A stretch of DNA of 64,000 bases from Raillietiella orientalis (GCA_036172245.1 JAYWIR010000123.1:1-64000), one strand, 5' to 3'; numbered from the stretch's first letter, positions 1 through 44,892 are shown. Notes: a model not told the origin generated them from the sequence alone. Numbers and translations: made by a program.

Positions 1-1102
1 TCGGAGGAGGAAATGAGGTCGGACCACGACGACGGGGATTCGATGTCTACGGGGTCTCGCGACTCTTCTCTAGAGGCGGTCCTGACCAAACAGGATCCTC
101 CAATCTCCACCACAAACACCGACGGACCAACTGCTTGCGAGGAACAGCCCGTCGCAATGGACACACAACTCCCGCCTTCTGAACAGCAGGTAAAGCCCGG
201 GAAGCAACCATAAACACACCAACACGTGTACTCTCCTTCTGTCGGCGGCTGCGCGTAATCTGTTAAAACGTCATCGGGTTGCACGACGCCGGCAAGAGGA
301 GAGAAGTGGCCACCAGCCTGCGGAACTTCGACGTGGCGCTTCTGCAGGAAACGCACGTGCTCCACGCAGAGTACGCAAAGGAAATCGAACGGATCGAAGG
401 CGGGCGGCTTATATACGAGAAAGGGAGACCGCACCCGCGTTGTGGCTTTCATGCTAAAGCCAGTCGTCGTTAATGCGCTGCCCGACGTGCACTTCAACGG
501 GGAAGGTCAGATCATGCAGCTTGTTGCCAAGTGGTCCGAGGCCATCGACCTCGTCGTGACCAACGTGTACGCGCCCGGCGCGAGCCACAGGCGCGGGGAA
601 CACACTGCGTTCTCCGATGGCCTGCGACGAGATTGGCTGGCCGAAGCAGACATGCGAAAGGCGCACCTCATTGCCGGGGACTTGAACGTCCGCCTGCTGG
701 TAGGTGCGGCGGACATTCGCGCGCAGCTGGTCAACAAGATGTGCGCTGCCATCCACGCGCGCAACTTGTTGGCCGGTGACGCCGGGACGGATACGAGGAT
801 CGACCACATGTTCTTCGACAACCAACTGTGTTCGCGGGCTGGAAATCGAGGGGCAGTGCCATCCGAACTTTCCTATCATCCCCGGCTCGTGCTAGGAATA
901 CACCTGCGATGTAGAGGTCCACCCTCCACAGCGTGGCATCTGCCAATGGATTGGTTGCGCCTCGCAGGAGCAGCGCAACATCTTCGCTCGTTCCTGTAAG
1001 GCTTCCATCTGCAGTCACTCGCGGTCAGAGACGACTTGAAGAGCTCAGTCCGCGAGTTCTGCTACCAGTTTCCCATGAACCGTCTTTCTCCAGGTTTCGG
1101 CG
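1..1102 (+). mobile_element. L1/Tx1-like LINE copy Z, 5' part: ORF1 tail and frameshifted APE endonuclease, broken at the GFG site
   Basis: ORFs 279-473 and 442-999 carry APE motifs LLQETH, TNVYAP, HLIAGDLN, IDHMF. The reading continues as REFCYQFPMNRLSPGFG up to the insertion junction at 1102/1103. Confidence 0.9.
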
Positions 1103-1696
1103 TTATCACCCGGGTGCGCCCGGGGCGTTTATTAATAAACTCTACATGCGTGGTACAAGGCAACAGCAAGGCCGTAAACACAGGACCTGTCAGGACACCG
1201 GGACGCAGCCCGGCGTGGCACTCCCCGAGAGCGAAATGGGATGAGGGGAAGAAGCAAAAAGAAAAATAAAGACATAAAATACAAAAAGAGTTTGGAGGGC
1301 AGGGTAGGTATCACTGGTCGCTGTGAGGAGGGCCCATCCTTCGAAGAAAGCCCTCGAGGTCTCTCCGCATATATCCAAGCTGGGCCATCCGGCAGCTCTC
1401 CGCAAGATGCGTTGTGCATACTGGATGACATTTCTCGCCTGTGGACTCACTCCTTCGTTGTTGGCGTCGCTCCATGCCGCCACGAAGCCACGGACGCAGC
1501 ACAAGGCTGCGATGGCTGCGGCTGGCTGCAGTGCGTCCTCCACGAAGAGGGGCCGAAGAACGTCTCTGGGGGTGCTGCCCGTAGGGAGCCCGAGGGTCGT
1601 CCCGAACCGTTCCCAAAGGGGTCGGAGGGCAGCACAATCGACAATAAGGTTGGGAAGCGACTCCTTCTCCCCGCAACTGTCATACGCAGGATCCAG
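1103..1696 (-). mobile_element. 3' end of LINE copy A (ORF2 C-terminal zinc finger region, 3' UTR, terminal hairpin)
   Basis: Minus-strand DPAYDSCGEKESL and ALQPAAAIAALCCVRG are homologous to B 10840-11222. It ends AATAAACGCCCCGGGCGCACCCGGGTGATAA (reverse complement of 1103-1133). Confidence 0.85.
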
Positions 1697-1910
1697 GTGC
1701 GGCTGAGAAGAGGAACGGCTGAACTATAGACGCCTATCCCCATCGTCCTCCCCAATTGATTTATTTATTTTCCCCTCCCCCCCGTTCCGTACTCTCTGAG
1801 TGCCCGTCCTGCGTGCCGGGGAATCTACTCCCCATCTTTTTTTCCCTTGCCTGGGAACACGGTTCCCAGATGTTTTTTTAATAAATGTTCCGTCGCAACC
1901 GGGTAATAAA
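1697..1910 (+). mobile_element. Short 5'-truncated LINE 3' end (subfamily also present at 47479-49440)
   Basis: Similar to the reverse complement of 47479-47690. Ends AATAAATGTTCCGTCGCAACCGGGTAATAAA. Confidence 0.75.
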
Positions 1911-2720
1911 CGTCAACGCTGCATTCTCTTGAAGACTCGCTACCTTGCTTGTTTTTATTTTGATATGCGAGCGGCTTTTCAAGTCGGGGTTCTTTTTTAG
2001 ACTTTTTCTTTTTCGTTGTTGCTGCCTGCCATTCAGGCTCCTGGAAGCTTTACTCTATTCTTTCGGCGTTTGCTGCCCTGATCTCCGCTGTGTCCTGGAC
2101 CGTGGGCGTGGGTTGCATAGCTTTAGCCGCAGTATTCGCCGCCAGCCTTTTTTGAAGAGGCCGGGAGAGTTTTTTTTGGTTCCTCGCGGAAACCACGTGC
2201 ACAGCGGATTGTGGGCACACCTCCCTCGTGTGACCGAATGTCCTGCATACTTTGCACTGTACGTTAGGGCACCTACTTTTGATGTGGCCAGACGTGCTGC
2301 ACAAGCCACAGTATTTGGGTTTCCCCACGTCACAGACCTCTGTTACGACGCTTTCGCCGCCGGCCACCAGTTGGTGGGGAAAAGTAGAGCCCTCGCGGAC
2401 GGTTGTGCGTGCAGCCGTGAGGCTGCATTTGACTTCAGTATAGTCCTAGAAAGGAATAGGCTTCTTAGACAGCATGGACCGTTCCTTGTTCTTTCAACGT
2501 GGCACGTACTTGGTCTTTCCGTATCGGCGATGTTTCTCCTAACAGGTAGACCACCATGCTGAGGTCCACCGTAGTGGGAAGGAGCCTGAGTGCCCCCAGC
2601 ACCACAGGGGTTTTTAGCAGTCGTTGGAACGACTCTGCATGTTTGCAGATGACCTCAACGTACTTAGCCCCGCTGCGGATGGTCATAGCGCTGAGCTCCT
2701 CTTTCTCGTCGGCTTTTTGG
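1911..2720 (-). pseudogene. LINE ORF1 (gag-like) fragment with two CCHC knuckles
   Basis: ORF 2050-2367 reads YCGLCSTSGHIKSRCPNVQCKVCRTFGHTREVC. Homologous to the ORF1 at 46399-47226. Confidence 0.85.
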
Positions 2721-4272
2721 AGCCTGACCTCCAATGGAGCGTCCCGCCTGCGCGAACTTGCAGATCTGCCGCTTGCTGCTCGAAGATTGCGTGAATCTCC
2801 TGCAGCAGGGCCAGATCGAAGTCGCGCAAGACGTTCGCAACCAATCGCTACTTCTCGTTGTCCTGCAGCCCGTTGACGTTTCAACAGGCCACTCGGACGC
2901 GACAGGAGAAAGCAAGACCGCGCATTGCAGCTACGGACATGGAGGTGCGTTCCTCGCCATGTCCGGCAAGGCGTCAGCGGGGAGCACGGCGGATGAGGTA
3001 GCGCAAGCGCAACTTGTCCCCGCCGCGCCGTTCGCGGCATGCTCGGTGGAGTCGAGGGCCATTGGCTCGAAGGAGCATCGGGAACCGTTCTTGGCATCAA
3101 GCTCTTGCTTGGCAAGTTCTGCTCTGCGCCAGCTCTGGCCTCGACCGGTGGCTTGGATAACCTTAGCTCTGACCTCGGTCTCCACCTCGGAGTCCGAATT
3201 CCGTGCGCGCGGCGGGAGTTCCGCTTGCCTCTTTTTTTGCTTGCAGCCCGGAACTGCTCCAGCATTCTTAGAGGCTGCCTTCGTCACTGATCCCCCTTTC
3301 GGGGTCACGGCTTCGACAGCTCCCCTCTCGCCGCGGGTGTTTGCGACGGCGCGCGCGGCGGCAGCAGAGGCTTTCTCTTGCACGTTTTTTGGCGCGTGGG
3401 GCTGCCACTCCACCCGGCCTACCTTTTTAATCGGTAAGTGGAAAGGATCGCGCGGTTTGCGGTCCTTCTTATTTCCCCCAACAAAGGTCCAGCCATCTTT
3501 GCCGCCTTATGGTTTGCCTCGGTTGAGCGCGTGGGCTTTTAGTGTCCTTCGCATCCTTTCCAAGTCCTCGGTTACGGCGATGGAGACCAGTGTCTCCTTC
3601 GCCTCGTCTGCCTTTTTCACCTCCTTTCCGGAAGGTGCGAGCAGAGTGGTAGTATTCTCGGAAGTCGAGCGAGGCTTTTCAGCGTTTCCAGGCGTCCGGC
3701 TCACCGTGGCCGGCTTGCATGTCTCGAGCAAAGGGGAGCGCGATTTCTTTTTGTACTTCCAGAGCGTGCCACTGTTATTTCTCTTCGGAGCAAGAGCGGA
3801 CGGAAGCGGTGGTTTCGCAGCCTGCCCGATGTTATCGGCGGGCGGGGTCGCTCGGGGCTTCACTGAAGCAGCTTGCTGAAGGTTCTTGTCCTTTTGCGTC
3901 GCCTTTATAGGAGCATTGCTCCCATACACGCCCGCGCAATCGGACTTCCTGCTTGTCCGTTGCGGAACTTCGTTCCCGCCGGATTTCTTACCCGACGACG
4001 TTGCGTATGGAGTCGACGCGGACGGCGATGTTGCGGGAAGGTTCCTCGCCCCCATCTCACGTTTTAGCTCGGCGCACTCGTTAATCGAGTGGCGGAGCAG
4101 CTTACAGTATCGGCAACGGCGTGTTGGGCACTTCCGCGGACGGTGGCCTTCCTTTTCGCAGTCGCTGCAAGCAGGGGTTTGCCCGGCAAACCGGAGATAG
4201 ACGACGACATCACCGAGGAGGATCTGCGAAGGCATGAAACTGCGGTCGTCCATGGTGACGCGCGCCGTGGCG
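2720..4272 (-). mobile_element. LINE fragment of another subfamily: ORF1 C-terminal half plus start of the endonuclease
   Basis: ORF 3507-4253 reads CSDCEKEGHRPRKC..CRYCKLLRHSINEC. ACxNVNGL and LLQEIH occur near 2790-2890. Segment 2720-3585 closely resembles 18012-18880. Confidence 0.8.
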
Positions 4273-4620
4273 ATTCACACCCGGATGTGCCGGGGCATTC
4301 ATTTCAGTGTAATAAAAATACAACTAATTGTTGCGTGGCGAATCCGAAGGTCCACTACTCCAAAACAGCTTGCTGGTTGCCGGCTCAATGCCGGTGATGT
4401 CCTTCCAATGCGCGAGGATGGGAAATAACAAACAAAAAGAAACAAAAAGTTAAAAAGTGAGTGGGGGGGGAACAGATGTTTCAGGGGTGGGAGGGCAGGG
4501 TAGGGATCACGTTGGGCGTGGACAGGTCTTCTAGATCCTATTAAGGATCCCCACAAGCTGAGTCCTTTGAGCGCATAAGTGGCGCCACTTGCAGACACTG
4601 CGCGCGAAAAGGCGAGTCCA
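4273..4620 (-). mobile_element. LINE 3' end fragment (3' UTR with terminal hairpin)
   Basis: Reverse complement shows GTGATCCCTACCCTGCCC after the stop, a pyrimidine tract, and ends AATGAATGCCCCGGCACATCCGGGTGTGAAT. Confidence 0.7.
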
Positions 4621-4649
4621 GCCTTACCGCTGAAAGAGACAGTAATCAT

Positions 4650-5811
4650 CGCCGGGGTGGACATAGGTAACAGGAGCAGAAGATCGTCGACATAAACACT
4701 TACGGCTCGCGTGCCGAGGCACGAGCTCGGCAAGGGGGCCAAAGTCACCCTGTACGCTCTCAGCACCAACTCAAATTAGGTGCTAAAGAGCAGGGGGTTG
4801 AGACTATCTCCCTGCCTTATGCCACGCCGCACCGGCACGCCATACACTTTGTGACCGCTGAAAAAGACGGTGAACATCGCATTCAGCCAGCAAGAGCGCA
4901 GGTAGGATATCAAGGAGAGTGGGAAGCCCATGCGACCCAGGAGCTCCAAGAGGAGTTCCTGGTCAACACAGTCGAATGCCTTATGGAGGTCGACTGCGAT
5001 CGCTAAAGCAACCTTTCCCGCATGAGGGTCCCTACCCTGTCCCGCTGGCTGCCCCAAAGTATGGTTACAAATTTTCCCTTTCTCTTCTGTCTTACTCCGT
5101 GCGAATGCATCCATGTGCTCGCGAAGAAGTGGTTGTCCTCCATACTTCGCCCGGGAACAGCGTAAGTCTGCTCCGGGCTAATTATGGAAATGGACACCTG
5201 CCCCAATCGGGACGCCCACAGCCCGGCAATCAACTTGGCGTCCGTGTTCACAATCGTGATCGGACGCCAGTTGCAAACTTTCCTGAGGTCTGCTCCCTTC
5301 GGGAGGAGCCTCACCCTGGCTGACCGAAACGAGGCGGGAACATCGCCTTCGTCTCGGATTCGCCTTGTCAACTGGAACACCAGGGCGGCCAGCTCTTCCG
5401 CGAAACTCTGAAAGAACTCCGCGGGCAAGCCGTCCTCCCCTGGCGCCTTACGCCTCTTGAAACTTTTGATACCGGCGAGAATTTCAGCGGTCGTGAAAGG
5501 CTCATCGAGGCTTTCCTCTTCTCCTCCCCAATCGCCACGGAACCACTCATGAGCAATCGCTTCGAGACGTCTCGTTCGGGTCATGTTTTGGCGCAAAGGA
5601 AGGAATAAAAACACCCCACGAGATTCCGTACCGCAAACGGGGACGAACGTTTCCGGCCCAGGTCATCCAGCATGCAGACTGACGCGGATTGCCTGGCTTG
5701 TCGCTCGGCTCCGCCGCGGTATTTGGCCATGCGACGGACATTGGGATTCCTCTCGTGACGAAACGCGTGCAAATACGCGCGTTCGTAGCGAGCTCCTTCG
5801 CCAAATCCCCG
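4650..5811 (-). pseudogene. Copy A middle part: ORF2 linker and reverse transcriptase (frameshifted, truncated)
   Basis: Motifs RGFGEGARYERAYL, KAPGEDGLPAEFF, NWRPITIVNTDAKL, DLHKAFDCVD, RGIRQGDSLNPLLF, YVDDL. Confidence 0.9.
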
Positions 5812-5908
5812 CTGTGGAGAGAGGACGTGCTTTTCCTGCGCTCCGCCTGCGTGGCAAAGCGAGTGGTTTCTTCTTGAGTGATTTGTGCGTGCACATCGTC
5901 GGTGTCCG

Positions 5909-7662
5909 ATGGCAGCGTTGCCAGAGTACACCGCGATGGAAGTAGGCGTTGGGGATCCTTGTTCTCCCCCACAGCCTACTGGATCAGGGGCATTCGCCCC
6001 GGAATCGTCCCCGGCGACGCCCAGGTCATGGATCGCCATGGTGGCAGCGTTTAGCGTTGAAGCCATGGCCGAGATGGAAGCCTACAGGAAAGCGGGGTAT
6101 AAACCCTTGCTAGTCTACAATGTAGGCAACCTTTTTGATGGGCGAACTGCACGCGCTTTTTCGAGAGCGTTGCAGAACGCCAACGTGTTAGAAAAGGATC
6201 TTGACGGTCTATCCGTGCTCAGCAAGGGTCAGCGCGTCGAGGTTGTGTGCAAGGACATCACCTTGGCGCAAAGCTTGATTACCACTTCGCTGAACGTGGA
6301 CGGACGCAAGATCCTACCAGTCACGATGGAACCCTCCGTAGTGGTCCATCTGACAGGGATCACCAGCCGCATGACACGGTCTGCGGTTGGTGATCAGTTA
6401 AGAAAGTATGGCGATGTTAACGCGCTATGGCCAAAGGCCACAATCTTCGATGGCTACGATAGCCTTTTTGGAGAACCGGCTGCCGCGCGTGTGACCATTT
6501 AGAAGGATAGTGGGCCTCCCCACAAACAAGAGGTCAATGACCAGGACGTAGACCTCTGGTACGTGGGGAAACCCCGCTTTTGTGGCTACTGCAATGCAGT
6601 AGGAAACTTGCGCAAGCGGTGCCCGAACATTGTGTGCCACTTAAACGGGGAGAAGGGACACGTGCGCCGCTTATGCCCTAAACGTCTCACTCCGGTGCCG
6701 CCTGCCGCAAAGAAAGCGCAGGCAAAACGCGGAAAACTGGTCGAAAGACCAAAAAGAGATACTGGCCGGCAGCAGCCGCTAGCCCCCGTTCCTCCCACAC
6801 AGGCGTCGGAAGAAAAACCTTACGAAGACGCGGGAGTTCAAAACGGCTGGCAGCTTGTCAAGGCCAGGAAGGACAAAAAGGTGCCCCCCGCGGAACCCGC
6901 GAAAGCGGTAAACAAGACAGCCGGCAAAGCGAAAGAACATGCGCCGCGCTCCAAGACCATGCGGGAATGTACGGTGGCACTGGAGCGCATAGCCGTTCCC
7001 GAGACTGCCACCCGGGGCGACGAGCCTTCCCTCGCCGTTTCCGCCGCGCCCGAGGTTCGCGACGACGAACCCTCTGTTTGCACAGAGGGTGAGCCGCGCG
7101 AAGCGCGCGCCGAAAGCGAAGACGCCGCGTTCGCGCAGGCGGCGGAGGAGCTAGCGGCCACGCTGGCCGAGCGTGAGAACTCCTCACGCAAGGCCTTGCG
7201 CAGGCCGGCTCCGCCGAAGAAGGCCCCCGCAGGTGAGTGCGACCTGGGGGCCGGAAGTGCATCCTCCTCGTCGGAGGCACCCCCCGGAAGAAGGGACGCA
7301 AGTCCCAAAAGCCGAGGAGGCGCTTCCCCTCCACGAGCGAGGAGGAGAAGCAGGAAGCCGACGGCAGCGTGGGAATCCCGAATGGGGAAATCCCACGCGC
7401 GGATGTTGTCGAGCAGGTCACCTCCATGGAGGAGGGTGAGCAGGGGGGCGAAGTCCTCCTTGCCGGCGCAAACGCTGTACAGCCCACCCTTATGGAGGAG
7501 GGCCAACAGGTAGGCGCGACCCCACCGGAGGATGACCCGCCCTACGCGCCGTCACCGATGGAGCAGGGGGACCAGGTGCTCGAGGCACCTGTCCCTCCTG
7601 CTCCACCTAGCGTACCGCCCCAACAGGTGGCAGACGCCGCAGAGCCGCTTTTCCAGGAATGA
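5909..7662 (+). pseudogene. Copy B ORF1 (gag-like nucleic-acid-binding protein), interrupted
   Basis: Starts MAALPEYTAMEV. Stop at 6500-6502, knuckles FCGYCNAVGNLRKRC and CHLNGEKGHVRRLC, frameshift near 7250, acidic/Pro-rich tail ending at TGA 7660-7662. Confidence 0.9.
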
Positions 7663-10600
7663 CACCTGGGCTCGCCAGTCGCCGTCGGATTCGCGCCGCC
7701 TGTTGGAACGTCAACGGGCTGCGCGACGACGGTAACAGGCGAGATACGGCCGACACCCTGCGTGAGCTCGACCTGGCCCTGCAGCAGGAGATCAACGTGA
7801 TCACCGCGGCAGACGCACAGGAGATCGAGACGATCGCGGGGGGTCGGTTGTATTGGCGATGCGGCCTCCGCAAAACCTGCTGGGTCACGTTCTTCGTGAA
7901 GCCGGCCATCGACGCTGCCGTGAAGGGCGTGCGCTTCGATGACGACGGTCGGGTCGGTCAGCTGATTCTCAGCTGGTCAGACTCGATCGAACTGATCGTC
8001 ACAAATGTGTACGCCCCCAGCGGTAAACAGGGATACAGCGACCGCACCAGGCTGCAGGAATCCCTGAAGCGCGACTGGCTGAAGGACACGAACGTGCGGA
8101 AGGCTCACCTGATAGCAGGTGATTTCAATCTCCGTCTGCTTACAGGTGAGCCAGAAACACAAGAGAACGCGATGAACGAGTTGTGCGCCGCCATGCGTGC
8201 GCGCAACTTGTTCGCGGATGATAGGGGAATGGTCCGTAGCATTGACCACGTCTTCCTCGACGCTGACCTGTGTTCACTGGTCGGGAAACGGGGCAGGTTT
8301 GCGTCAACGTTGTCGGACCATTCCCGGTTAATTTTCGAGATGCGGCCTCGCGACAAGGAACCGCCATCTAGAGATTGGCGTCTGCCGGGGGACTGGAAGC
8401 GACTTTCAGGTGCGAAGGAACACCTTCGCGAATTCCTGAGAGGCGTCATGCTCCAGAATCTCTCGGATTGGGACGTTCTCAAGACATCGGTCCGGGAGTT
8501 CTGCGAGCAGTTCCCCCTGGACCGCCTGCCTTCAAGATTCGGCGAGGGTCCTCGCAAACATTGGGCCTATTTACAGGCTCGTAGGTACGAGAGAACACCT
8601 AATGTCCATCGCCTGGCCGAATACCACGCCGGGGCCAAACGCCAAGCCTGGCAATCCGGGTCGGCCAGATTGCTGGACGACCAGGGCAGGGAATGTTCGT
8701 CCCAAGCGTCGGTACGGCATCTCGTGCGGAGTTTTTATTCCTCTCTTTACGCCAGGGAGCCCTCGGATCGAGACACCTCTCGACGCTTGCTTCCGGATGG
8801 CGCCCCGCCAATAGGGGAGGAGGAGATGGAAAGCCTCGACTAGCCTTTTACCACCGGCGAAATTCTCGCCGGTATCCAAAGACTCTAAAGGCGTAAAGCT
8901 CCAGGGGAAGACGGCTTGCCCGCGGAGTTCTTTCGGAGCTTCTCGGAAGAGCTGGCACCCCTGCTGCTTAAGTTGATCAGGCTGATCCGATACGAAGTCG
9001 ATGTTCCCGCCTCGTTTCGGTCAGCCAGAGTGAGGCTCCTTCCGAAAGGAGGAGACCACAGGGAGTAAAAGAACTGGCGTCCGATCACGATCGTGAATAC
9101 GGACGCCAAGTTGATAGCAGGGCTATGGGCTTCGCGTCTGGGGCAGGTGGCAGAATCCATAATTAGCCCGGAGAAGAGTTATGCTGTTCCCGGGCTAAGT
9201 ATGGATGCCAACCTCTTCTTCTGAAGCACATGGGTGCACCTGCAGAGAAGAGAGAAGAAGGGGATAGGAAAAGTCGGCAACCCCACATTGGTTCCACCAG
9301 TGGGAAAGTTAAGGGGGTCTTAGCGATTGCAGTCGCCATCCATAAGGCATTCGGCTGTGTTGACCAGGAACTTCTCTTGAAGCTCCTGGGTCGCATGGGC
9401 TTCCCAACTTCCCTGATTTCCTACCTGCGCTCTTGCTGGCGGAATGCGATGATTACCGTCTCTTTCAGCGGCCACAAGGTGTATGGCGTGCCGGTGCGGC
9501 GGGGCATAAGGCAGGGCGATAGCCTCAGCCCCCTGCTCTTCAGCACCTACTTTGAGTTGGTGCTGAGAGCGTACAGGGTAACTTTGGCCCCCTTGCCGAG
9601 CTCGTGCCTCGGCACGCCCGACGTGGCAGCGTACGCCGACGATCTTCTGCTCTTCTTGCCATTGTCCTCCCCGGCAAAGGCGGTCGGAGACTTCTTCGAT
9701 CTGCTCAGGCGCGGGACCGGACTGCAGGTTAACAGGGCGAAGTCGTCAGTGTTGCCAGCTGGAGCAACGTGGTCAGGGCAGCGGGACTGGGTCCGTCTGG
9801 GGATCCCCACGGTGAGGTGCATTAAGTACCTCGGTGTACCGTTGGGGGACTACTCCCCTGCGGAAGCGTGGTAAAGCTGCCTCCAAAAAGTCGAGACGGC
9901 GATCGGCCCGTTCCTGGAAGGCAAGTTTCACTTGCCGGAATGGGCCGCGGTTTGGAACGCCTTCGCGGCCCCCATCCTCCGCCTCTGTCTTTTTGTTTGC
10001 CCTTCCACTGTGGAATCGAAGAAAAGGACAAAGGACCTCCTCCGTATCGCCCTTTGGGGCAAGGGGAGGCCCCGTGTCCCTCTGAAGGACTTGTGCGCTC
10101 CGTGTCGGGACGGCGGTCTTGGCCTTCTGACGCTGGAGCGTGTGGAGAAGCAGCTGCGGTGGCGAACCATCGCCATCGCAGCGAAGATGTGGAGCACCCC
10201 TTGGTGTACTCCGGCCCGCCTCCTGGCCAGCCGTGTTTCCCGGTGCGATGGACTCGCGTCTTTTCTGTTGATCCGTGGCCGGAAGAAGCGAAGATGCGGC
10301 CTACTGCTCGGGCGCATGGCAACATTGGCCAAGGAGAACAGCTCGATGGTTTGCTGCCCCGCCAACTGTCCCGCCTGGCTGGAGGAGAATATTGGAACGT
10401 GGGAAGCGGTTAACCAGAGGAGCCACGAAACGTGGAATCGTCTCCGATGCACCCCCTACGCCCGCTGTACGCTGCGAAATCTCCTGAAGAGTCCAGCAAG
10501 ATGCACGTGGGCAGAGACGACCTGCCTAGCTATGGTGCTACTCTTCCTGAGGAGGGCACTTCACAGCAGCCGAACGCTAAGCTGGCAAGTCTCCTGCTGC

Positions 10601-11222
10601 ATCGAGGGACGCGAGAAGTTGATCAGCGGCTGGACAACAAGAGAACTGTGCGACGCCACTACACCGAGCGTCCAGCCGTGAGGACTAAGAAGTTGGGGCG
10701 AGCTGCTGGCCATCCCTATGGATGTGCTGCAGTGGCCCCCGCTTCTTTAGGAATCCAGGATCCTGCCCCTTAAGTGGAAAGAGTCCGCGTTGCTGTTGTT
10801 GCAACGCACGCCGCTCTCACTGGACAAGAGGAGTTGTGGATCCTGCGTGTGTCAGGTGCGGAGAGCGGGAATCTCTCTCCCACCTTATTGTGGACTGTGC
10901 TGCCCTTCGTCCCCTTTGGGAACGGTTTGGGACGATCCTCGGTCTCCCTACAGGCAGTTCCTTTAGAGACGTTCTTCGGCCCCTCTTCGTGAAGGACGCC
11001 CTGCAGCCAGCCGCTGCCCTTGCAGCCTTGTGCTGCGTCCGAGGCATCGTGGCGGCATGGAGCGAAACCAACAAGGAAGGAGTGGGTCAACACGCGAGAG
11101 ATGTCATCCCATATGCCCAACGCTTCTTGCGGAGAGCTGCTGGATGGCCCCAACTGGGGAATCTACGGATGGACCTCGAGGGCTTCCTTCAACGGATGGG
11201 CCCTCCGCTCAGCGAACAGTGA
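7659..11222 (+). pseudogene. Copy B ORF2: APE endonuclease, reverse transcriptase, C-terminal CCHC; several stops and frameshifts
   Basis: Motifs ACWNVNGL, TNVYAP, LIAGDFN, IDHVFL, SDH; RGIRQGDSLSPLLF, YADDL, KYLGV; CVRCGERESLSHLIVDC. Confidence 0.95.
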
Positions 11223-32478: not shown

Positions 32479-35400
32479 CCATAATCAGAGTGGACAAACT
32501 TGAAATACTTTCCCCCTTGTACGTCAATTTCCTACATATTTCCTTGCAGCGCTACGTGCACTGTCTACAGCGAGGTATCCAGATACCTTAAAAATAAGGC
32601 TGCGTTTGCAAGCCTGTGCCTCACAGGAGTTGTCTTTCGCCCAAGGTACCGCAGATGGTGTTAGTCACACCGCAAAAACAGGAAGTAACTGTTTTTGCAG
32701 TCCAGCTTCTCGCCGTGAGAGCGCAGGAGTGTGTGGGTACGGCCGCCTCGACATCTGTGAAAGAGGACTAAAGGAAGCAAATATCCTCAATTTTTCTGAA
32801 GTCCACCGGTGTGTCCACAGACCGCTTGCTTCTCCACACCGAAGACTAATTTCTCAAATATGCAAAAAAATACTCCAGAAGGCTGGAATGCAATCGTTTT
32901 GATTTCCTTAGGTCCTGGGGACGATCGTCTTTTGTTTTTCTTATACTGTCCACAGGGCATTTGAGCATTTTTGCCTTCGTTTCCTCATTGAAAGAATGCG
33001 AAAATGTCAACTGATGTCGAAATTCGACAGTTCTCAAAAAACACGTGGTCAGAGCCTTTTCAAAGGGAATACGCAGGGATACGCAGAGCAAAATCGGTAC
33101 TTAATGTGTATGCTGTGTTGGTTCAATGTACATACTGGATCCACAGGAGGAACTTCTCGAGGGAGCGATCGAAGTACCTTGATGTTCCGTTAATGGACTT
33201 CTGCTTTAAAGAAGCCTGGTGCGATCGACACCGCAATGTAGATTTAATGACCAGATGCTACTAGCGTACTGGTTTGCCTCGCCGAACGAGTTACGCAGTC
33301 AATGGATGCTGACACGCCTGGCAACGAAAATGCAAACCAATTATTGCGATTATCGCGACTTTCAAATGAGCATTGGACGGCAGCGCAGCCACTTGCGCTT
33401 CTGCTACTTCAAGGAATCTGCGAGTACCATCCTCTACAGAAATGGCTCCCACAATTTTCCTGAGAACAGGGTGCACGGAAGACCTTCACACGTCTCCGCC
33501 TATTTTACATACGATGGGATACAAAAACAGATTAATGTTCTCTTAATGTTTATAATGACCACGTATACCATGAGAAACGAGGGGACACATGTGGAACTTA
33601 TACCTTTTTGACTAAAAAACAATTAAAAAAGGAAACGCTGGGAGAAAAGCTAATTCTCCTTCATTATAAAATTTTATTCCTCAAGCGCGAGGATAGAGAG
33701 AGCATCTTCAAATAAATTTGGTCTCGTAGAGAAATGACGCTGCAGCGGACAATGATACAAAATCTATACCACATAAACTAATCATCTGGCTATTTACTGC
33801 CAAAGTTCAAGATCTTGGACCACTTGCTGCCACTTATCTTCTCATCTTCTGTTTTGTCAGCGAGGGGTGTCCTCTTTAGGCACTGTGTTTAGGATCCTCA
33901 CGTGAAATTTTAGGACTTCAAAATGGAAACAACGTCTGTAGACCACAGCCGCAAGTGCAGAGCATTTGTAACTTCTGGATCTCTTGTTACTATGCTGGTT
34001 GCTTAGTAATAGAAATCTTTGCAATTTGAATGCACTTTATCGTTTGAAGCTACCATCCTTTGTGGCTCAAAACCTTTCATGCTCTCGGCTTTTTTCATCT
34101 TTTTTTTTTCCCCAAGGTGTGCCAACAAAAAGTAGCGTGATAATGACAAAAAGCGTAGGCAGTAATCCGGAGCGCACTATTATGTGTTTACCATGTCCAC
34201 ATAATGAGAAAATGGCTGAACATTGTTTGCAGTGTACTACACAACATACGAAATTTTGCGTTGTCCGCTGCTGAGTGCATATCCTCTTGTATCTTCCCAT
34301 CCTTCTCCTATCCAAATCAGTTACTGTGAAAGTTGAATTAGGAATCTACGTACGTGATGTGTTTTCCTTGCTATTTCTCTTACGGAAGAATTGGCATATT
34401 GTGTCATCCTCGTCTCTTTCAGTTCTTTTCTGGTATTGTCCAGTTAGATTATAATTAACTTAAATACAAAAGTACACTCGTGTACCACTGATTCCCATGG
34501 TGTTGCCTAACTCAACGGGCGACTCGAAAGTCTACTTTCAAAGCACACATTCATCATCGCAAAGAAAGTCAGTGTAATAATTAAACTTGAGTTGAATAAA
34601 AATGCGAAAAAAAACATTTTGGTAGTCAAAGAGAAACACTTGGGACGCAAAGTGATGTTCGAACCAAATAAGCTGGGACTGCCTCTATACTCGTTCATAG
34701 AACAAGATTGATGCACAGCCCAACGATGTATAGGAGCTGAGATGTTAAGGCCATCAGAAAGAAACTTAAGGATAATATATTCATCAATGGGAAGGCAATG
34801 GAGATGTCGTGAGGAGGTGCGGGAGAGACGTCCTAGTCAGGAATTACTAGAAAGCAGGAGAGCCATCAAGAACATGGCTTCAAACCAAGATTTTAAGAGA
34901 TGAATGCCATATTTCGGAAGTGCTCAAGAGTAATGGGACGAAGGGCTCTTGATTTGTTTATTTGTAGAATATACTTTAGGTCATTTTAACACCAGATGTG
35001 AGTGTAGTAAAGGAAGTGCAATCCGCGCAAACATCATTTTGAAAGCAAAGGAAGTCTCTCGCGCGGATATCTTGGAAATAGCATTGCTAAAAATGCTGCA
35101 AAGATATGAATGCACTTCAGTGACGTTCATCTCAATGGAATGGATTCCAAGGATGCATTAAATGTACGCTGCACAGGTCGCGAACTTATCTCTAGCAGGT
35201 GCACAGCACGCGGTGATCAAGATGAGTTTCATAGTCCGATTCGACGAGCTGTGAACGTATGGTGGTGCTGAAGAATATTTCAAGCGCTCATTTCTGAGAC
35301 AAAGGGCAGCAGACTAACCGATTGAAAGCCAACTGAGTTGAGATCTCAATGAACACATGAACGCTTGACATGAGAAGAAAAACTCGAACATGCGGTTTCT

Positions 35401-36016: not shown

Positions 36017-39000
36017 TTAAATACTGGATTTGCAGTGATCCTTTTAATATGCATTCAGATTAAACAGGAAGCAAGTGATGAAGAAAGCGGTTTATGAAGA
36101 TCAAAAAAATCATGATATTTTTCTTCAGAGTATGTCAAAGTAGAATTCTGTTGCAAATATTCGGCCCAATACAACACTTTCAAGTAAGGTTGAGTGTTTC
36201 ATTATGCGAACGATAAGTTCGCAGTTAAGTAAGTGGAACTAAGAGACGAAAAGACTCCTTAGAACTAGTGTCATGAGAGAGTTGAAGATGTGCTCTGTTA
36301 AGCAGCTTCAATCCTCACGTGTTCATTTTTGAATAGTAAATGATGGAAATACATTATCAGTAATTGAGCGTCCCAGATAAAAAAGGAATGCATCCTCGAG
36401 GACGAAAGTTCATCAAATGGCACATGTGGACTGGGATGATTAAAAGAAATCTGCATACATAACTGTCCTCAATTAGTTTCCAAGTGCATGTGAGAAAAGT
36501 AGGTCTCCCCATGCGTCTTTAACTTAGCTGTCACACAGGTCCACACAGAAAATTACAAGATGGAATAAACAAGCTCTTTTATTATTTGCAGATGCAAACG
36601 CACAAGGAATCTATGAACTCCTTAATCCTTGACGATAAGGTTTAGTAAGTTGCCTGGACGCCAAGTACAAGATACCTTGGTTGGTATTGTTCCAGCATTT
36701 CGACCGACGGATAGTCTAAGGAAAAAAAAGATCAACTTTACTCCTTAACCTTCGAATATCTTGTATCCGATGTTTTCGAATAGTTCTGAAATCAAGCACC
36801 AGTTTTCTAGTTTAAAATTGTGATTGAAAAGTCTTTGCTATAAAGCATGCTGTCAATGACATAGGGATCAAGAACGAAAGAAAGAAAAGTACAAATACCC
36901 AAGAAACATTCTAACAGATTTCCGGGAATCTTCAACATATTCAAAACGAATATAAGATGAAAAAGTTAGTCTATTAAAAAGAAACTCAAACTCTGTCAAC
37001 TTTCGCAAATCTGCAAAATACATATTACAATGAAATGCTCAAATTGATACAGTTGAAGTACACAGGTTTGCACCAGTCAAAGGAACACAATTAAAAGATG
37101 GTTTGCTTAATGCTCTTCAAAGACAACAGAATTTACAGTGAAATAAATACTTGAAACGTCATACCTCTGTCTCCAACTTGAGTAAACGAGGTCGCACTCG
37201 CCATTGAAAGGGCCCAAATAAAAATAAGCCGTCATAGGTTGACGACTTCCCTTTACCTAAAATTATCAATGATTTTTGAACGAAGCAAAAACATACTTAC
37301 ATATAGTTGTGCAGTGCACCGACCTTGACCTAGTCCATGCGAACGACTATTGATAGACAGTTCACATGTGGCGTGCCTGTTGTCGAAGGTATATTGGCAT
37401 CCACCAACAGGGGCACGCAGACCAATGACGTGTGGGAGAACTTTCAACCCCACAGAAGTAATGTTTTCAGGAGTGCTCATTGCATTGTCAAACATGAGTA
37501 CAGTAGCAACATAAAAAGAACACGACTACAGTTAATATTTGCAACCAAGTAAGCAAATGCGTAGTAGCATCGATGAACTTCGAAGAATTACACAAAAGTC
37601 ATACTCTTGTCATACAAGCACAGCAACCATACAGAACCGAGAAAAAACCCACAAACGACAGATCTACTTCCAATAACGACTGACAAGCGCATGACTCCTG
37701 TACCAGCCATCGAACAAAAAAAACAAGTCTCTTTCCCGAGACAGAAAACGTGAGTTGCAAGAGCCAGTCTTCCATCGTATTCGCCATCAAGATCAAAGGA
37801 TGCAAAACAGCAAACGATAATCCAAAGAAACGAAATGAAAACCAGATGTATCCTGGAGAACAGAGGAAAGAACAAAAGCAACGACTCTTTCATAACAAAA
37901 GAAATAGATCAAGGAAAGAAGTGACGAACCACAAGATGATACGCATGCAGGGAATTCTTGAAGCGGAAATTAAGAAACCGGCAATGCAAAGGAACAAACC
38001 AATCAGGGGAAAAAATCGAAGTACCACGAAGTCAAACACGTGCGAATAAAAGCAGCAGCTACATCACTAAGAAACCCTCCAAGTGACTAGCCGAACGATT
38101 CGTACCACACCGCGCTGTTTACCCTTAAATCGAGGATTAAGTAGACAATGTCCAGAAATCGTCTAGCATACGAAACAAGAAGTAAAATCATACAAAAACC
38201 ATGCATTGAGAAACCAACTACTGCTTACGATATTGAATAGAAGAGACAGCATCCTCTTTCTCGAAATATCAGACAAAACGGGCGCAGAATAGAGCAACGG
38301 ATTGAGAGAAGAACGCCGCTCCGCTGCGTTTTATACAGATTCACTTGCGGTTTCCTCCAGCACATGGGATTTCCTCCTCCCTCCATCTCCCACCTTGTCC
38401 TCCCAACAAGTGCTGCCATCTCTCTCCTCATGCTGCAGAAAAGAACGGATGATTCACTTTCCCACATCCGAGGACGTTCTCGGCAACACGCAGGCGGAGA
38501 AAATATTCGCATTCGTGAGAAAACTTGCACACAACATGGTCAACGGAATGCTCTCGAAGGTAGAAAGAAACCTCAACGAGTTTGCAACATAACATGCGAC
38601 ATCAGAGATTAGAGAGCTGCCTGGAAGTGACGACCCATGACAGAATTCAAGTCGAGTTGGGAGAAAGCATTGAACAAGATAGGCGACGTCCATAAGAAGA
38701 TTGCAACGGGAGAAAAGCAGCACCTGGCGAGAAATGAGTTTTTCGACACCAAAGTTTGAGAAAAGGATTCCCATTAACACGTGGAGATCCCGCTGGAGAA
38801 TGTCGAAAAGGGGCAGATTTGAGAATAACGTTTGCAAGCGCAAAAACGCAGGTGTACACCACCTGTACCGTCGCAGCGAACGCACCACTGACAACATCCA
38901 ACAACTGCAAACAGGGAAGCGCCTATTGTAGGGCGAAGAAATGTGGAACGGAACCATGTGCGAAGGAACCGAGGCTAGAAGTGAAAGTTGCTTTCGCAAG

Positions 39001-42000
39001 CTCACTCCACTCCTCGCATGCGGAAGCTACTTGTACATTCGGCACGTACGGAAAAGTTAAGGGGTTCGATGCGTGGCCCACTCACCTCCAGAAAGCAATG
39101 AAAATGAGGTGTCTCTATAGAATACTGGAATCCACCGCTGACTGCATTTTCATTTCAAACTTCGGAGAGAAATACGAAAAAATATTCTTCAAAAGCTATC
39201 GTACACAATAGTAGGTATTTTATTAGAGGATGTTTTCGTTTTCCTGTGATGACAGTATCAAGCTCTTCGTGACTTCTCAGAGGAACAGTTTGCTCCAAAC
39301 AAGTTGCCGGAAGAGGTTCGTGCAAGGATATTAAAGCATCGAAGGACAAACACAGAAGAAATGAAATCTGATGGAAAACGTGCTAAAATCATCACGGGTG
39401 GCGAAGAAATCGCAGCTTGTCCGCTGCTGTCCTTCTTATCCCCTCAATGATGCTGTCAAATTCGTGCTCGTTGCGTACTATGCGCGTGAATCTCACCGCG
39501 GTTGTTTTGATTCCATATCCTTCGACTATTCGAAGGACATGGCTACTTTATATTTTTTCTACTTCTTTCTCAGTGCTCCTAGCGGTCACGGTTTTGCAAA
39601 CAGAGAAGAATACTGAGATCGCTCAGGCAAGCAGCATTTGTTCGCTCGCGCAGAGAAATAAAACGCCCTCTGGAGGTCTTTCGGAAGTTCTGGAACGTAG
39701 TGAAACGTTCACGCTTACGCCGGTAAGGAGCAAACTCAATAAGCAGGAGTGCCAAGTTTCCATTTTGTCTCCTCTTTTCCATCCTGGTGCCAGACCATTT
39801 CTCATCAACTGATGAGATTCCCTTTGCATGGGTGGTCTGATTGCAACAGTCGCGAAGCAGAGTATTCCCCTCACAGAAGAAGCATCGATTCGTCGCTAAA
39901 CGGCGTGGAGATCTTCAATGCTTGCAACGGGATCTCGATTGATCCGCTCGACGCTGAATTCTTTTCACATGAAAGCAAAGCAAGGTGAATGTTTTAGCTC
40001 TGAAAGCACCGCCCAGTATTTCAACATCAGCATGTTTAATGCATCCTAGCAGTGTATCGTCTATGCTACGGTCTCCAAGCTGTCTGGGTTACTACGTGGC
40101 CATGACAGAGTTACATTAAGAACACTTGTCTGTGCTCAAAGAGTGTTTCTCAGGAAGTCCATTCGATCCTTCACTAAGCAACGAGATCAAAATTTCCTCT
40201 TTCCACCTCCTCTGAGTGCAGAGCATCTAAGCGTCATCTTGAACAGAGGTCATCATCTGCGGATGCTGGTTGCCAAACAGCGGTCACCAGCTTTGGCACA
40301 TTGAGAAAACCATAGTGAATTAGTCTCCGCAGCATGAAAAACAAATGATTACGAGCAATGAGTAAGCACTACGAAGAATGCTGTTCCCAAGTATCACAAA
40401 AGAGCTTCAGCAGCATTAATCGCACACAATTTGGACTCACTTTTACAGTGGCGAGTTGCGCTGCACATTTAAATTGTCATTTGTCAAAATTCTATCCTGG
40501 ATGAGTACGGAAAAGCCCAGTCCACATGAACCCAACACGGGAAGCACGAAGGAAGCATGTGTGAGAAAAGTGCAAGATTCATTTGCAAGGATCATTTGCT
40601 TTGCTAAATTCTTGTTTTTCCTGATCCATGCACTGAGATGAAATGAATGTAGGGGAGTCCAAAAGATGAGCAGTCGCATTCCTGAAGATGAAGAAGAATA
40701 AGAACTGGTACAACTCTCGGCATGATTCTGGAGAACGCAGCACACGCGTGTATTTCAGCGGTTGTGTTTACAATGGCAGACATCTCCAAGCTTCATCACA
40801 GGAAAGGCGACAGAATTCACGTTGCTGCTGGTTCAAACGCGAGTATAATGATCCCATTTATTTCCATACTAAGTGGAATCCGAATGTCTCGAGTCCGGAA
40901 TGGAAGCAGCGGAGATCGCGGCGAGATGCATCGAGAACATGTAAAGTGTTATTGTGGAACGTTCGTTTCTTAGCCACGATACCACTGTCTGTTGGCATGT
41001 TCCTGCAGATTTGCTTGCATGCAGTGATAGACTTGTCCATCTGACATAACGGCGGCAGTGCGATTCTCTTTGAGCGAATCAAATGCTCTCTCTGACACCC
41101 TGCGATTGGAAGAGATTTGCTTCTTCAATGTTATTTCTTATGCACTCTGCCTACGGTGTTGAACACATTAGCAGACAGTATTTTAGTTTTCAGCTGAAAG
41201 AACACTTGCGAATGCATTGTGGAGGGCGCAAGACGCCTTTTTGCGCAAGCAGTCAGGAAAACATTAGATCTTCCAGAATGTTCGAGGACAGCGCTGAAGA
41301 TGCCCGCAAACAGATTTGAAAGGTTTCCAGAATGCAAGCAGTCTACGGTAAAAAAAAAAGTTGATTCAATCAGGTGGAGAATAGTATGCCATTCCGTTTT
41401 GATCATAATTTTGTATGTATAACAAACCTGGATTCGGCTGTCACTACGCGCTTTCATGTTCTGTTGCGTTTTCTTTCGCAAAACGGCAAAAATTCGTTGT
41501 GATTGCATTTTTAGATGCATAATACGCAAACGTCCCGTTATCTCTTGTGAGCTATCCTTCACCAGTACTCGGAGGTGCTGCATTCAGATGATTTTGAATG
41601 TTATAATAACCTTGCAAGGAACAAGCATCTGGTCTGCTTTCCTTCTCGACCACCGCTTCGTCGCGAGTCTCATCCTTGTAGCAACACTGAATTCAATTTA
41701 CTTATTTACTCAACAGCATCACGAGGGCGCTGATAAAATTAGAATTAAACTGCAAATCGTCTAGCAGAATCGATCAGCGGTTCAGCTTGTTAGGCAAAGA
41801 GGAAAACCACTAAATAATCTGAGTAAATCGCAATAAGTTCATAATAACGCCGCTTGAGCATCCGTTTCAAAAAAGGGTGTTCTGCGCTTGTGTCCTTCTG
41901 ATTCAGACTCAAGTGGAATATGTTCCACGTCCTGCAATTTTTGCATGTATTGTGGCTCGCCCTCGCGATGAAGCAGCCTGGAAGCGGTGCAACATATCAG

Positions 42001-42630
42001 AATGCTGAGTCGTTGCACTGCATCTACGAAAGAAAGGCACGTAACATCAAGGACGCCTTGCTGCATATTTCCCATATACACTTTAAACGATGTGCCCAAA
42101 CTCACTTCCAGATTCCAGAAGTATTTCACTCTGCAGGCTTCTGCTAGATGATTCAGAAAGCAGGGAATCCATGCCACGCATTGCGTTTATTTCCAAAATG
42201 CTAAGGGCACATATGATTTTTTCAAGCACAAACAATTGAGGTTCTCTGTGCGGCTTGTTTGCAAAGGGGCGACCAACATTTTTGACTCAAAATGCAAAGT
42301 TCATGTTCATTAAGATGAGAATACTCTAAATAAATTAAAAAATTGGCATCATGAATAAGCTCCACTTTTCGAAAATATTCAATTGGTTTCTTATAATTTC
42401 TAGAAAAAGTAGCGCAATGTATGCTTTCCTGAGAACACGTTTCTGAGGTAGTAAAAAAATCTCACACGATAGAGAATGTCTGTACAGTTGTTGGATTACG
42501 TGGAACCTGGAAGTGTACAATCGATTTCGAAAAATGACAACATCCATTTATACTTTTTTGCATGCCGACGGTTGCAGTGAGAGTGCAAGACCTGATTATG
42601 ATTTAGCAGTGCCACACTGACAGCAGCAGT
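36017..42630. repeat. Unclassified AT-rich repeat, locus 1 forward unit (homologous to 51371-57297)
   Basis: Collinear blocks 36017-37245 ~ 51371-52612, 38423-41400 ~ 52613-56975 and 42395-42630 ~ 57003-57240. Moderately diverged (roughly 70-80% by eye). Confidence 0.85.
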
Positions 42631-44892
42631 GGTTCTTGCAAATCTATTTTGCACTTTTTTTACACATGCTTCCGTCGTGCTTCCCGTGTTGGGTTCATGT
42701 GGACTGGGCTTTTCCGTACTCATCCAGGATAGAATTTTGACAAATGACAATTTGAATGTGCAGCGCAACTCGCCACTGTAAAAGTGAGTCCAAATTGTGT
42801 GCGATTAATGCTGCTGAAGCTCTTTTGTGATACTTGGGAACAGCATTCTTCGTAGTGCTTACTCATTGCTCGTAATCATTTGTTTTTCATGCTGCGGAGA
42901 CTAATTCACTATGGTTTTCTCAATGTGCCAAAGCTGGTGACCGCTGTTTGGCAACCAGCATCCGCAGATGATGACCTCTGTTCAAGATGACGCTTAGATG
43001 CTCTGCACTCAGAGGAGGTGGAAAGAGGAAATTTTGATCTCGTTGCTTAGTGAAGGATCGAATGGACTTCCTGAGAAACACTCTTTGAGCACAGACAAGT
43101 GTTCTTAATGTAACTCTGTCATGGCCACGTAGTAACCCAGACAGCTTGGAGACCGTAGCATAGACGATACACTGCTAGGATGCATTAAACATGCTGATGT
43201 TGAAATACTGGGCGGTGCTTTCAGAGCTAAAACATTCACCTTGCTTTGCTTTCATGTGAAAAGAATTCAGCGTCGAGCGGATCAATCGAGATCCCGTTGC
43301 AAGCATTGAAGATCTCCACGCCGTTTAGCGACGAATCGATGCTTCTTCTGTGAGGGGAATACTCTGCTTCGCGACTGTTGCAATCAGACCACCCATGCAA
43401 AGGGAATCTCATCAGTTGATGAGAAATGGTCTGGCACCAGGATGGAAAAGAGGAGACAAAATGGAAACTTGGCACTCCTGCTTATTGAGTTTGCTCCTTA
43501 CCTGCGTAAGCGTGAACGTTTCACTACGTTCCAGAACTTCCGAAAGACCTCCAGAGGGCGTTTTATTTCTCTGCGCTAGCGAGCAAATGCTGCTTGCCTG
43601 AGCGATCTCAGTATTCTTCTCTGTTTGCAAAACCGTGATCGCTAGGAGCACTGAAGAAAGAAGTAGAAAAAATATAAAGTAGCCATGTCCTTCGAATAGT
43701 CGAAGGATATGGAATCAAAACAACCGCGGTGAGATTCACGCGCATAGTTCGCAACGAGCACGAATTTGACAGCATCATTGAGGGAATAAGAAGGATAGCA
43801 GCGGACAAGCTGAGATTTCTTCGCCACCCGTGATGATTTTAGCACGTTTTCCATCAGATTTCATTTCTTCTGTGTTTGTCCGTCGATGCTTTAATATCCT
43901 TGCACGAACCTCTTCCGGCAACTTGTTTGGAGCAAACTGTTCCTCTGAGAAGTCACGAAGAGCTTGATACTGTCATCACAGGAAAACGAAAACATCCTCT
44001 AATAAAATACCTACTATTGTGTACGATAGCTTTTGAAGAATATTTTTTCGTATTTCTCTCCGAAGTTTGAAATGAAAATGCAGTCAGCGGTGGATTCCAG
44101 TATTCTATAGAGACACCTCATTTTCATTGCTTGCTGGAGGTGAGTGGGCCACGCATCGAACCCCTTAACTTTTCCGTACGTGCCGAATGTACAAGTAGCT
44201 TCCGCATGCGAGGAGTGGAGTGAGCTTGCGAAAGCAACTTTCACTATTAGCCTCGGTTCCTTCGCACATGGTTCCGTTCCGTATTTCTTCGCCCTACAAG
44301 CAGCAGCCCTGGCAGCACTTTTCTGCATTCGTGGTATCGTGGCGGCCTGGAGTGATGCCGAAGATGAAGACTGCATCGTGAGGCATGTCATCGAGTATGC
44401 TTCTCGCTTCCTGCAGAGAGCTACCCGATGACCCATCTAGGAAAAATGAGAAAGGAACTAGAAGGCATCCTGCAAAGGATGGGCCCTCCCAGCAGTTTTC
44501 TGTGATCCCTTCCCGGCCCTCCAAACTTATTTTTGTGGTTTGTTTTTCTCTTTTATTTTATTTTTGTTTTCTCCCCCATCCCCCTCCACTGCCGAGGAGA
44601 GCCACACCGAGCTGCGCTTCGGTGTCCCGGCAGTTCCGGTATTGCGTGGCCGTCAGTGGGGCCTTGTACCACGTTCTGTATTGACCGTTGAAATGTTTTT
44701 AATAAACGTTCCGGCGTATCCGGGTGGCATCGCCCTACAATAGGCGCTTCCCTGTTCGCAGTTGTCGGATGTTGTCAGTGGTGCGTTCGCTGCGACGGTA
44801 CAGATGGTGTACACCTGCGTTGTTGCGCTTGCACACGTTATTCTCAAATCTGCCCCTTTTCGACATGCTCCAGCGGGATCTCCACGCGTTGA
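38775..44892. repeat. Large inverted repeat 1: arms about 38775-40592 and 42631-44892, about 2-kb spacer
   Basis: Identical or near-identical ORFs on opposite strands (39749-39988 + and 43236-43475 -; 39155-39349 - and 43876-44070 +). Confidence 0.95.
44300..44729 (+). mobile_element. 5'-truncated LINE insertion with an 11-bp TSD
   Basis: TSD TCGCCCTACAA at 44289-44299 and 44730-44740. Contains AALAALFCIRGIVAAW and the 3' hairpin. The empty site is in the other arm (about 38920-38940). Confidence 0.93.

Follow-up and report, generated by a model that had tools for sequence, protein, structure and literature searches.

In mammalian L1, the apurinic/apyrimidinic endonuclease (APE)-type endonuclease (EN) has the nicked-strand consensus 5'-TTTT/AA-3', and target choice by L1-type ENs is usually described as structural recognition of the junction between a T-tract and A (PMC1950540). 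Here we describe a family of L1-like long interspersed elements (LINEs) in a stretch of 64,000 nucleotides (nt) from Raillietiella orientalis (GCA_036172245.1 JAYWIR010000123.1:1-64000), called the window below. Insertion of these elements is sequence-directed at a GC-containing word, beyond chance. Five pre-insertion sites are verified by target site duplications (TSDs), and in element orientation, with the nick marked by ^, three of them read TT^CGCC and two read CA^CTTY. As in L1, an APE-type EN is followed by a reverse transcriptase (RT), TSD length varies, and the target is defined by a short consensus and not by a single locus; human L1 EN is among the nearest solved ENs by sequence. In the class to which our copies C and D belong, the AA past the nick is retained (nicked strand GGCG^AA, compared with TTTT^AA). 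Unlike in L1, the bases 5' of the nick contain G or C (GGCG or RAAG) and there is no T-tract. A 3' poly(A) tail is typical of mammalian and most plant L1 elements. The copies in the window differ from mammalian L1 in that they have no poly(A) and end in a 3' hairpin and a fixed tail, and in that the first open reading frame (ORF1) encodes a CCHC knuckle.

The Tx1 group is described as target-specific within the L1 clade, and Tx1L as using one defined site in the Tx1D transposon (PMC3747384, PMC1950540). By that description, our elements resemble the Tx1 group in their L1-clade-like architecture, in a sequence-selective APE endonuclease and in their insertion into other mobile elements, but unlike Tx1L they use a 6-bp word at several unrelated places, including non-LINE DNA, and not a single multicopy target. 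The insect elements R1Bm, TRAS1 and SART1 are sequence-specific APE-type LINEs of a different clade (PMC1950540). The precise nick and the precise 3' junction without a long A-tail are shared with them as they are described, whereas their targets are long, unique and multicopy (28S rDNA, telomeric repeats) and that of the window family is a hexamer. LINEs of the stringent type, with a 3' stem-loop and a short terminal repeat, are represented by UnaL2 and by one L1 lineage of maize and sorghum (PMC3747384), and our elements have the same order of a conserved terminal stem-loop and then a short run of conserved bases at the 3' terminus. This combination of hairpin and fixed tail points to stringent template recognition; a partner short interspersed element was not seen in the window. 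Finally, Zepp and ZeppL are described as nested L1 clusters of green algae (10.1101/2025.03.28.645958). The window resembles them as a dense nest of L1-type LINEs, but a sequence relation was not found, as none of 34 matches in 1.84 billion proteins was so named. Zepp has poly(A) tails.

Results

Three of the five verified sites belong to one clade of copies, C, D and x44730. LINE C (5812-11432, + strand) is full length, with ORF1, APE-type EN, RT, a putative C-terminal Cys motif, the 3' hairpin and the tail GGGTGACAA, and it lies antisense in copy D at GCTCCTT^CGCCGAATCCCCG. Its TSD copies, at 5799-5811 (CGCCAAATCCCCG) and 11433-11445 (CGCCGAATCCCCG), are identical at 12 of 13 positions. The upstream copy is held by the middle part of D (4572-5811, - strand, reference positions 8536-9775) and the downstream copy by the 5' part of D (11433-14171, - strand), which comprises the 5' untranslated region (UTR), ORF1 and the EN up to the GFG codons. 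D in turn lies antisense in an older LINE, H1, at GCAATT^CGCCGAAA; it has a full-length 5' end at 14171, and its 3' part (1103-1696, - strand) ends at 1103 with the tail GGGTGATAA, followed by the CGCC of H1. The TSD of D (TTTCGGCG, at 1093-1102 and 14172-14182) is 8 bp long if exact or 10 bp with one mismatch. The left half of H1 (183-1102, + strand) is the EN part, which tblastn aligned to copy C (reference positions 7623-8544) and which is broken at the GFG codons (…GGTTTCGGCG^), and the right half (14172-17160, + strand) restarts at the same codons (GGCTTTCGGCG AA…). The third copy, x44730 (44300-44730, + strand), is a 5'-truncated 3' end in a non-LINE repeat, R, at TTTCTT^CGCCCTACAA, with a perfect 10-bp TSD (44290-44299 and 44731-44740). 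The same sequence is found uninterrupted at an empty paralogous site in repeat R (38926-38935, - strand), and therefore the CGCC belongs to the target and not to the element. Repeat R is non-coding and is arranged in inverted pairs (38926-40589 with 42635-44299, 98.7% identical, and 52612-56993 with 57298-61723, about 90%); because the pair that holds x44730 is 98.7% identical, this insertion is recent.

The two other sites have the second word. LINE M (21961-27580, - strand; full length, tail GGGTGAAAA) lies antisense in LINE N at TTCCCA^CTTCC, and its TSD copies of 4-5 bp are at 21956-21960 and 27581-27585. N is 5' truncated; its left part (18921-21960, + strand) is broken at …CCCGAGGAAG^ (reference position about 10833), and its right part (27669-28267, + strand) continues to the 3' end, with the tail GGGTGAAAA followed by CTTCGG. 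The fifth verified site, added here, is that of x56050 (54657-56050, + strand), a 5'-truncated LINE with the tail GGGTGATGAA that lies in repeat R at GTAGTCA^CTTTCACAA (GTCA^CTTTC) between 22-bp TSDs, the upstream one at 54635-54656. Two empty paralogues of this site are present, one at 40440-40461 (+ strand, …GGACTCA^CTTTTACAGTGGCGAGTTGCGC) and one at 42763-42784 on the reverse complement, and the copy itself has a duplicate, x58284 (58284-59677, - strand, TSDs at 58262-58283 and 59678-59699).

TSD length thus varies from 4 to 22 bp and the targets are diverse, three of them in LINE coding sequence and two in the unrelated repeat R. The nick falls at the same position of the same word, TT^CGCC in all three copies of the C/D/x44730 clade and CA^CTTY in both others. 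The bases across the nick, outside the duplication, are fixed as well (TT at 3/3, CA at 2/2), which points to nuclease recognition across the nick. The first-pass annotation, made from the sequence alone, had proposed that three CGCC sites read TT^CGCC before insertion and that one of them lies in non-LINE DNA, and the TSDs and the empty paralogue agree with this. A search for TSDs at x51144, x46307, x32477, x30807, x47479, x4273, N and the 3' UTR fragment E3 gave only 7- and 8-mers in implausible places. A sequencing run, X1, contains a fraction of 0.12 of the sampled words, and when compared with 44200-56200 it yielded 150 short contigs, of which 105 were less than 90% alike. One of these contigs skips 44289-44729; it may represent the empty paralogue at 38926 and not an empty allele, and it was not counted. 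The table of loose ends from X1 was dominated by the T-rich stretch 46129-46166 and showed nothing on the 3' junctions; parts of the region that no contig covers are uninformative.

To count 3' ends, an nhmmer profile was built from the 14 ends of the first-pass annotation. Fifteen ends matched with E-values of at most 1.6e-4 and a sixteenth with 0.2; two are new, at 56050 (+) and 58284 (-), and as each occupies one arm of an inverted duplication they represent one event, followed by CTTT, which brings the total to 16 ends from 15 events. The tetramers that had been listed after these ends, namely CGCC (1102 and 4272 on the reverse complement, 11433, 44731), CGTC (1911, 17161) and CTTC (21960 and 27585 on the reverse complement, 28268), are all present in the sequence, and the exceptions at 30808, 32478, 46308, 47478 and 51145 lack the motif as claimed. 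In the window, the local background probability of C[GT][CT]C after a tail that ends in A is 0.026. This motif follows at least 9 of the 16 ends (P = 5.5e-11), at least 8 of 15 (P = 1.2e-9) and at least 6 of the 12 that remain when doubtful junctions are removed (P = 2.6e-7). CGCC alone is found at 4 of 15 ends (P = 3.4e-6, or 8.8e-4 after correction for 256 tetramers). At the TSD-verified sites, TTCGCC accounts for 3 of 5 and has a frequency of 3.2e-4 in the window (P = 3.3e-10, or 1.3e-6 after correction for 4096 hexamers), so that the GC-containing target specificity suggested earlier holds. The bases before the nick add to this, as the probability of TT given CGCC is 0.068 (cubed, 3.1e-4) and that of CA given CTTY is 0.058 (squared, 3.3e-3).

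These numbers would mean little if a few old events had been spread by segmental duplication and the motif had been read into them post hoc. Some observations fit such an artefact. Composite junctions align to each other at about 71% (221-1695 with the reverse complement of 10837-12316, and 1703-2701 with that of 46696-47685), x56050 and x58284 do stem from a single duplicated event, and three composites of a T-type 3' UTR with ORF1 (1703-2722, 29396-31933 and 46308-48074) show congruent divergence of insert (79/65/66%) and host (68/56/59.5%). In these composites the ends 1910, 47479 and 30807 abut antisense ORF1 at a homologous position, with the flanks CGTC, GGAC and CCAG, respectively; the trio may be one old event that was copied or three hits at one, longer, recognition site in ORF1. 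Two short X1 contigs (about 86% alike) run 13-15 nt past the T-type 3' end at 47479. The two insertions at the GFG codons, however, are independent, because C lies inside D and D inside H1, the TSDs differ, and the host parts of the two junctions (H1 and D) are 63.6% alike, compared with 81.9% for the inserted 3' parts (D and C), a value that matches the identity of D and C in the EN (80.3%). Together with the empty paralogues of x44730 and x56050, and with an enrichment that survives the loss of the doubtful junctions, this largely refutes duplication as the source of the CGCC class, and we consider such an artefact very improbable for the data as a whole.

The motif was then compared with lineage in a tree of 15 3' ends (last 100-700 nt). 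One clade holds C, D and x44730, all with CGCC (support 0.916), and another holds M, N and the short fragment 'frag', all with CTTC (0.821); H1 and x4273 group with CGTC and CGCC (0.989). The remainder consists of x46307 with x51144, the T-type trio with x56050 as its sister, and x32477 alone. Four clades have a single motif, a number attained in 19 of 20000 shuffles of the labels; with 'frag' left out there are three (140/20000). CA^CTTY is common to two unrelated lineages, M and x56050. It is likely that the motif classes are lineage-specific, the association being visible in few events.

All 16 3' ends share an architecture that consists of a T-rich tract, two hairpin-like internal blocks, AATAAA, a short CCGG(G)-loop-CCGGG hairpin and a tail of the form TGAnAA(A). 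No end has an A-run longer than 4 (0/16). Folding of eight ends predicted the terminal hairpin in all of them, with single-sequence z-scores that are weak (+0.2 to -1.8), so the case for it rests on its conservation across lineages whose proteins are about 30-65% alike; a stem-loop shared by such diverged lineages is what is seen in LINEs with stringent 3'-end recognition. Elements followed by CTTC have TATTGGCCG(T/C)AGCGGGGC and a GAAAA tail in common, and the alignment bears out the single 3' UTR type that had been ascribed to them.

The motif could also come from the flank that follows the 3' end of a parent copy. In this alternative the EN would be only loosely selective (for example Y-W^C), and a read-through RNA carrying the parent's downstream TSD bases would anneal to the nicked strand, …AA-CGCC or …AA-CTTC pairing with …GGCG-3' or …GAAG-3', so that the motif would be inherited with the location of a master copy while the protein stays the same. 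Read-through target sequence is used for precise initiation by R1 and SART. The distance from AATAAA to the end of the element is 25 nt, which makes cleavage a few bases beyond this end plausible, and the tails themselves are not complementary to the nicked strand, so another pairing, or none, must prime. The putative specificity loop of the EN does not sort by motif class either. A further junction can be read in two ways. The 83-nt 'frag' (27586-27668, - strand), an M/N-type 3' end, occupies the CTTCC word immediately upstream of M, and the CTTCC between the two is identical to M's own TSD. Copying of a read-through RNA after a jump between templates would leave such a CTTCC, but re-use of M's upstream TSD copy fits equally well, and 'frag' may reflect either a second use of this regenerated copy or a template jump by the RT. 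The bases across the nick cannot derive from the RNA at all and are nevertheless fixed in each class (TT 3/3, CA 2/2). This argues for an EN that reads the word itself, and we regard an inherited flank as rather unlikely; as a source of the difference between lineages, it fits as well as a change in the EN.

The arrangement of the words in the elements is of interest for the nest. All seven LINE-in-LINE junctions with a readable orientation, of which no more than 5 are independent, are antisense (0.5^5 = 0.03). In the coding sequence of the family itself, the preferred words are mostly antisense; GGC-GAA, for example, encodes the Gly-Glu of the conserved '(R/G)FGE', and C and D together have 10 TTCGCC words, of which 9 are antisense. 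New copies would consequently land antisense in older ones and build the nest.

The GFG codons had also given rise to the idea that copies with a changed GGCGAA are protected and hence uninterrupted. The genotypes are as described before, with GGCGAA in 2/2 interrupted copies and in 0/4 uninterrupted ones, which have GGCGAG (8541), GGTGAG (24875-24880, reverse complement), GTGGAA (19633) and GGGGAA (17327-17332, reverse complement). Interrupted copies, however, carry the site by ascertainment, and a comparison of 2 copies with 4 is too small for any test. In three of the four variants the only changes are synonymous, at third positions (GGC to GGT or GGG, GAA to GAG), and the fourth changes Gly to Val, among lineages that are 60-80% alike. 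In addition, the uninterrupted copies C and M retain 6 and 7 other perfect TTCGCC words, none of which was hit. H1 has one TTCGCC word, which was used, and D has four, all antisense, of which one was used; the GFG word is therefore not the sole target, and a copy is not protected by mutation of this one word. The lack of an insertion in C is explained by its age, as no layer of the nest is younger. Escape by site mutation thus did not hold up, and we consider it extremely improbable.

By their sequence, the elements in the window are L1-like non-LTR (long terminal repeat) retrotransposons, a deeply diversified single family with many dead copies. The G+C content is 56-62% across 1-28,300, the portion formed by the nest of decayed copies, and 38-46% in much of the remainder, which includes repeat R and unique DNA. 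The family has an ORF1 with a CCHC knuckle and an ORF2 with APE-type EN, RT and a putative C-terminal Cys motif. In C, the best copy, Pfam profiles detect an endonuclease domain (PF03372, Exo_endo_phos, 28.6 bits with a cut-off of 24.5), RVT_1 (53.7 bits) and weakly zf-RVT (16.3 bits with a cut-off of 27.5), which is above the cut-off in the distant homologues P0004 and P0010; the knuckle in ORF1 of copy D scores 20.5 bits, just below the cut-off of 20.8. GDFN and SDH motifs are visible in the EN of six copies. The nearest Protein Data Bank (PDB) chains to the EN in a sequence search are ExoIII-type nucleases and human L1 EN (E = 1.4e-4 to 4.9e-4), and the RT half had no match among PDB sequences. 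When the 525-amino-acid (aa) RT/C-terminal ORF of M was compared with a representative library of 1.84 billion proteins, 34 were found at E ≤ 1e-3. The sole close relative is P0001 (56% identity), on a 2870-nt JGI contig, and farther relatives have an architecture of EN, RVT_1 and zf-RVT. With so few relatives in public data, the host is probably a eukaryote that has been little sampled. A stricter homologue search with the LINE protein gave none at E ≤ 1e-10, its search against genome contigs gave 27 pattern matches with 0 confirmed, and that against viral contigs gave none. A metagenome scan for the 3' hairpin pattern gave 26 loci, apparently chance prokaryotic ones, with a tblastn match to the LINE proteins at 0/26. 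A keyword search of open-access text found no description of the family or of a TT^CGCC-type L1 target.

Several pieces of the nest are incomplete or rearranged. Copy D is without reference positions 9775-10836, and its break (at about 10836) is near the CTTCC site that M used in N. In its place, 1697-4571 holds four unrelated LINE pieces. The inverted T-type 3' end E3 (1703-1910, + strand) has the tail GGGTAATAAA and is followed by CGTC in an antisense ORF1 fragment (1911-2722). Next to it is F' (2713-4272, - strand), a K-like LINE with 5' end, ORF1 and the start of EN, which begins with CGCCACGG, head-to-tail after the 3' end at 4273. The fourth piece, x4273 (4273-4571, - strand), is a 5'-truncated 3' end with the tail GGGTGTGAAT, followed by CGCC. 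Such head-to-tail joins to the 5' end of another full-length-looking element are seen at 3 of 15 3' ends (4273/4272, 27586/27585 and 46307/46308). To the right, H1 ends at 17160 with the tail GGGTGACAAA, followed by CGTC in the antisense ORF1/EN fragment K (17161-18883, - strand; GFG site GGGGAA). Between K and N, 18884-18920 is a filler of about 37 nt with an 11-nt inverted repeat (GGAGTGAAGCA / TGCTTCACTCC). This 5' junction of N has no recognisable TSD, and the sequence from 28268 onward, after the 3' end of N, is not the continuation of K. Insertion of N into K (CTC^CTTCGCC, with F' as proxy) was considered and rejected, because 28240-29300 does not resemble F' (best E = 0.9).

Beyond the dense nest, x30807 (29396-30807, + strand) comprises a T-type RT, C-terminus and 3' end, followed by antisense ORF1 (30808 to about 31933). 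A lone 46-aa RT fragment at 33082-33219 (profile E = 8.7e-17) lies outside every delimited element. The LINE 3' part x46307 (45029-46307, + strand) has a degenerate hairpin and joins the 5' end of an ORF1-bearing element (46308-47478). The T-type 3' end x47479 (47479-48074, - strand; tail GGGTAATAAA) abuts antisense ORF1 at a position homologous to 1911 and 30808, and x51144 (49425-51144, + strand), which runs from the RT to the 3' end, is followed by (A)GCGAG, with no TSD found. Among 15 ORFs of repeat R and the ORFs of 47.7-49.7 kb, Pfam gave nothing above noise.

Discussion

The reading that we favor, and think is probably correct, is that these elements insert by target-primed reverse transcription after a sequence-selective nick, that the preference of the EN has diverged between lineages, and that the family nests antisense in itself, whereas the differences at the GFG codons are not escape variants. 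In the lineage of C, D and x44730, the nicked strand is 5'-GGCG^AA-3' (TT^CGCC in element orientation), and in M and the unrelated x56050 it is 5'-(G/A)AAG^TG-3' (CA^CTTC/T). The EN would thus read bases on both sides of the nick. The RNA would be of the stringent type, with the RT bound to the 3' hairpin and starting at the conserved TGAnAA tail. We put forward more tentatively, and as something that may well prove wrong, that within one genome sister L1-type lineages have switched the hexamer of their EN (GGCG^AA or RAAG^TG) and that a family which targets itself builds its own nests.

Several observations weigh against the favored reading. There are 15 independent 3' ends, all from one window, and TSDs for only 5. 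The ends at 30807, 32477, 46307, 47479 and 51144 and that of x56050 (CTTT) do not fit C[GT][CT]C, and the TSD search was negative for five of these. E3 and x47479 share their tail and are inserted at homologous positions, yet CGTC follows one and GGAC the other. The hexamer is not sufficient, because 38 of the 41 TTCGCC words in the window are unoccupied. The number of single-motif clades was chosen as a statistic after the tree had been seen, and a Fitch count (9 changes) is not significant (1680/20000 shuffles, or 5682/20000 without 'frag'; without 'frag' and x4273 it is 584/20000). The motif correlated with subfamily that the first-pass annotation claimed is supported on a small sample, by the C/D/x44730 and M/N/frag clades and by one of the two shuffling tests.

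The S-I/V-D-H motif of the EN is taken by us to mark the specificity-loop region. We compared the C-terminal half of the EN (about 150 aa) in six copies, with loop anchors T192/S202 as given for L1 (PMC1950540), a mapping to this family that is indicative only. Just four columns are the same in C and D and different from a state shared by M and N, and there is no class-specific signature in the putative specificity loop, in which C and D, with the same motif, differ as much as the classes do. Two of the four columns (RA in one class, CT in the other) directly precede the putative betaB6-betaB5 loop, and this pair is a candidate for the specificity positions.

As a new sequence-preferring APE-type LINE, the family is moderately interesting. 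Re-engineering the target choice of L1-type ENs has been difficult. If our reading is true, these elements would provide a natural series of related nucleases with differing GC-containing hexamers, in which the residues that determine specificity could be mapped. For annotation, the motifs together with the conserved 3' hairpin may be used to delimit copies without poly(A) exactly. The placement of the words would also offer a simple account, at the level of sequence, of why these elements pile up antisense in each other.

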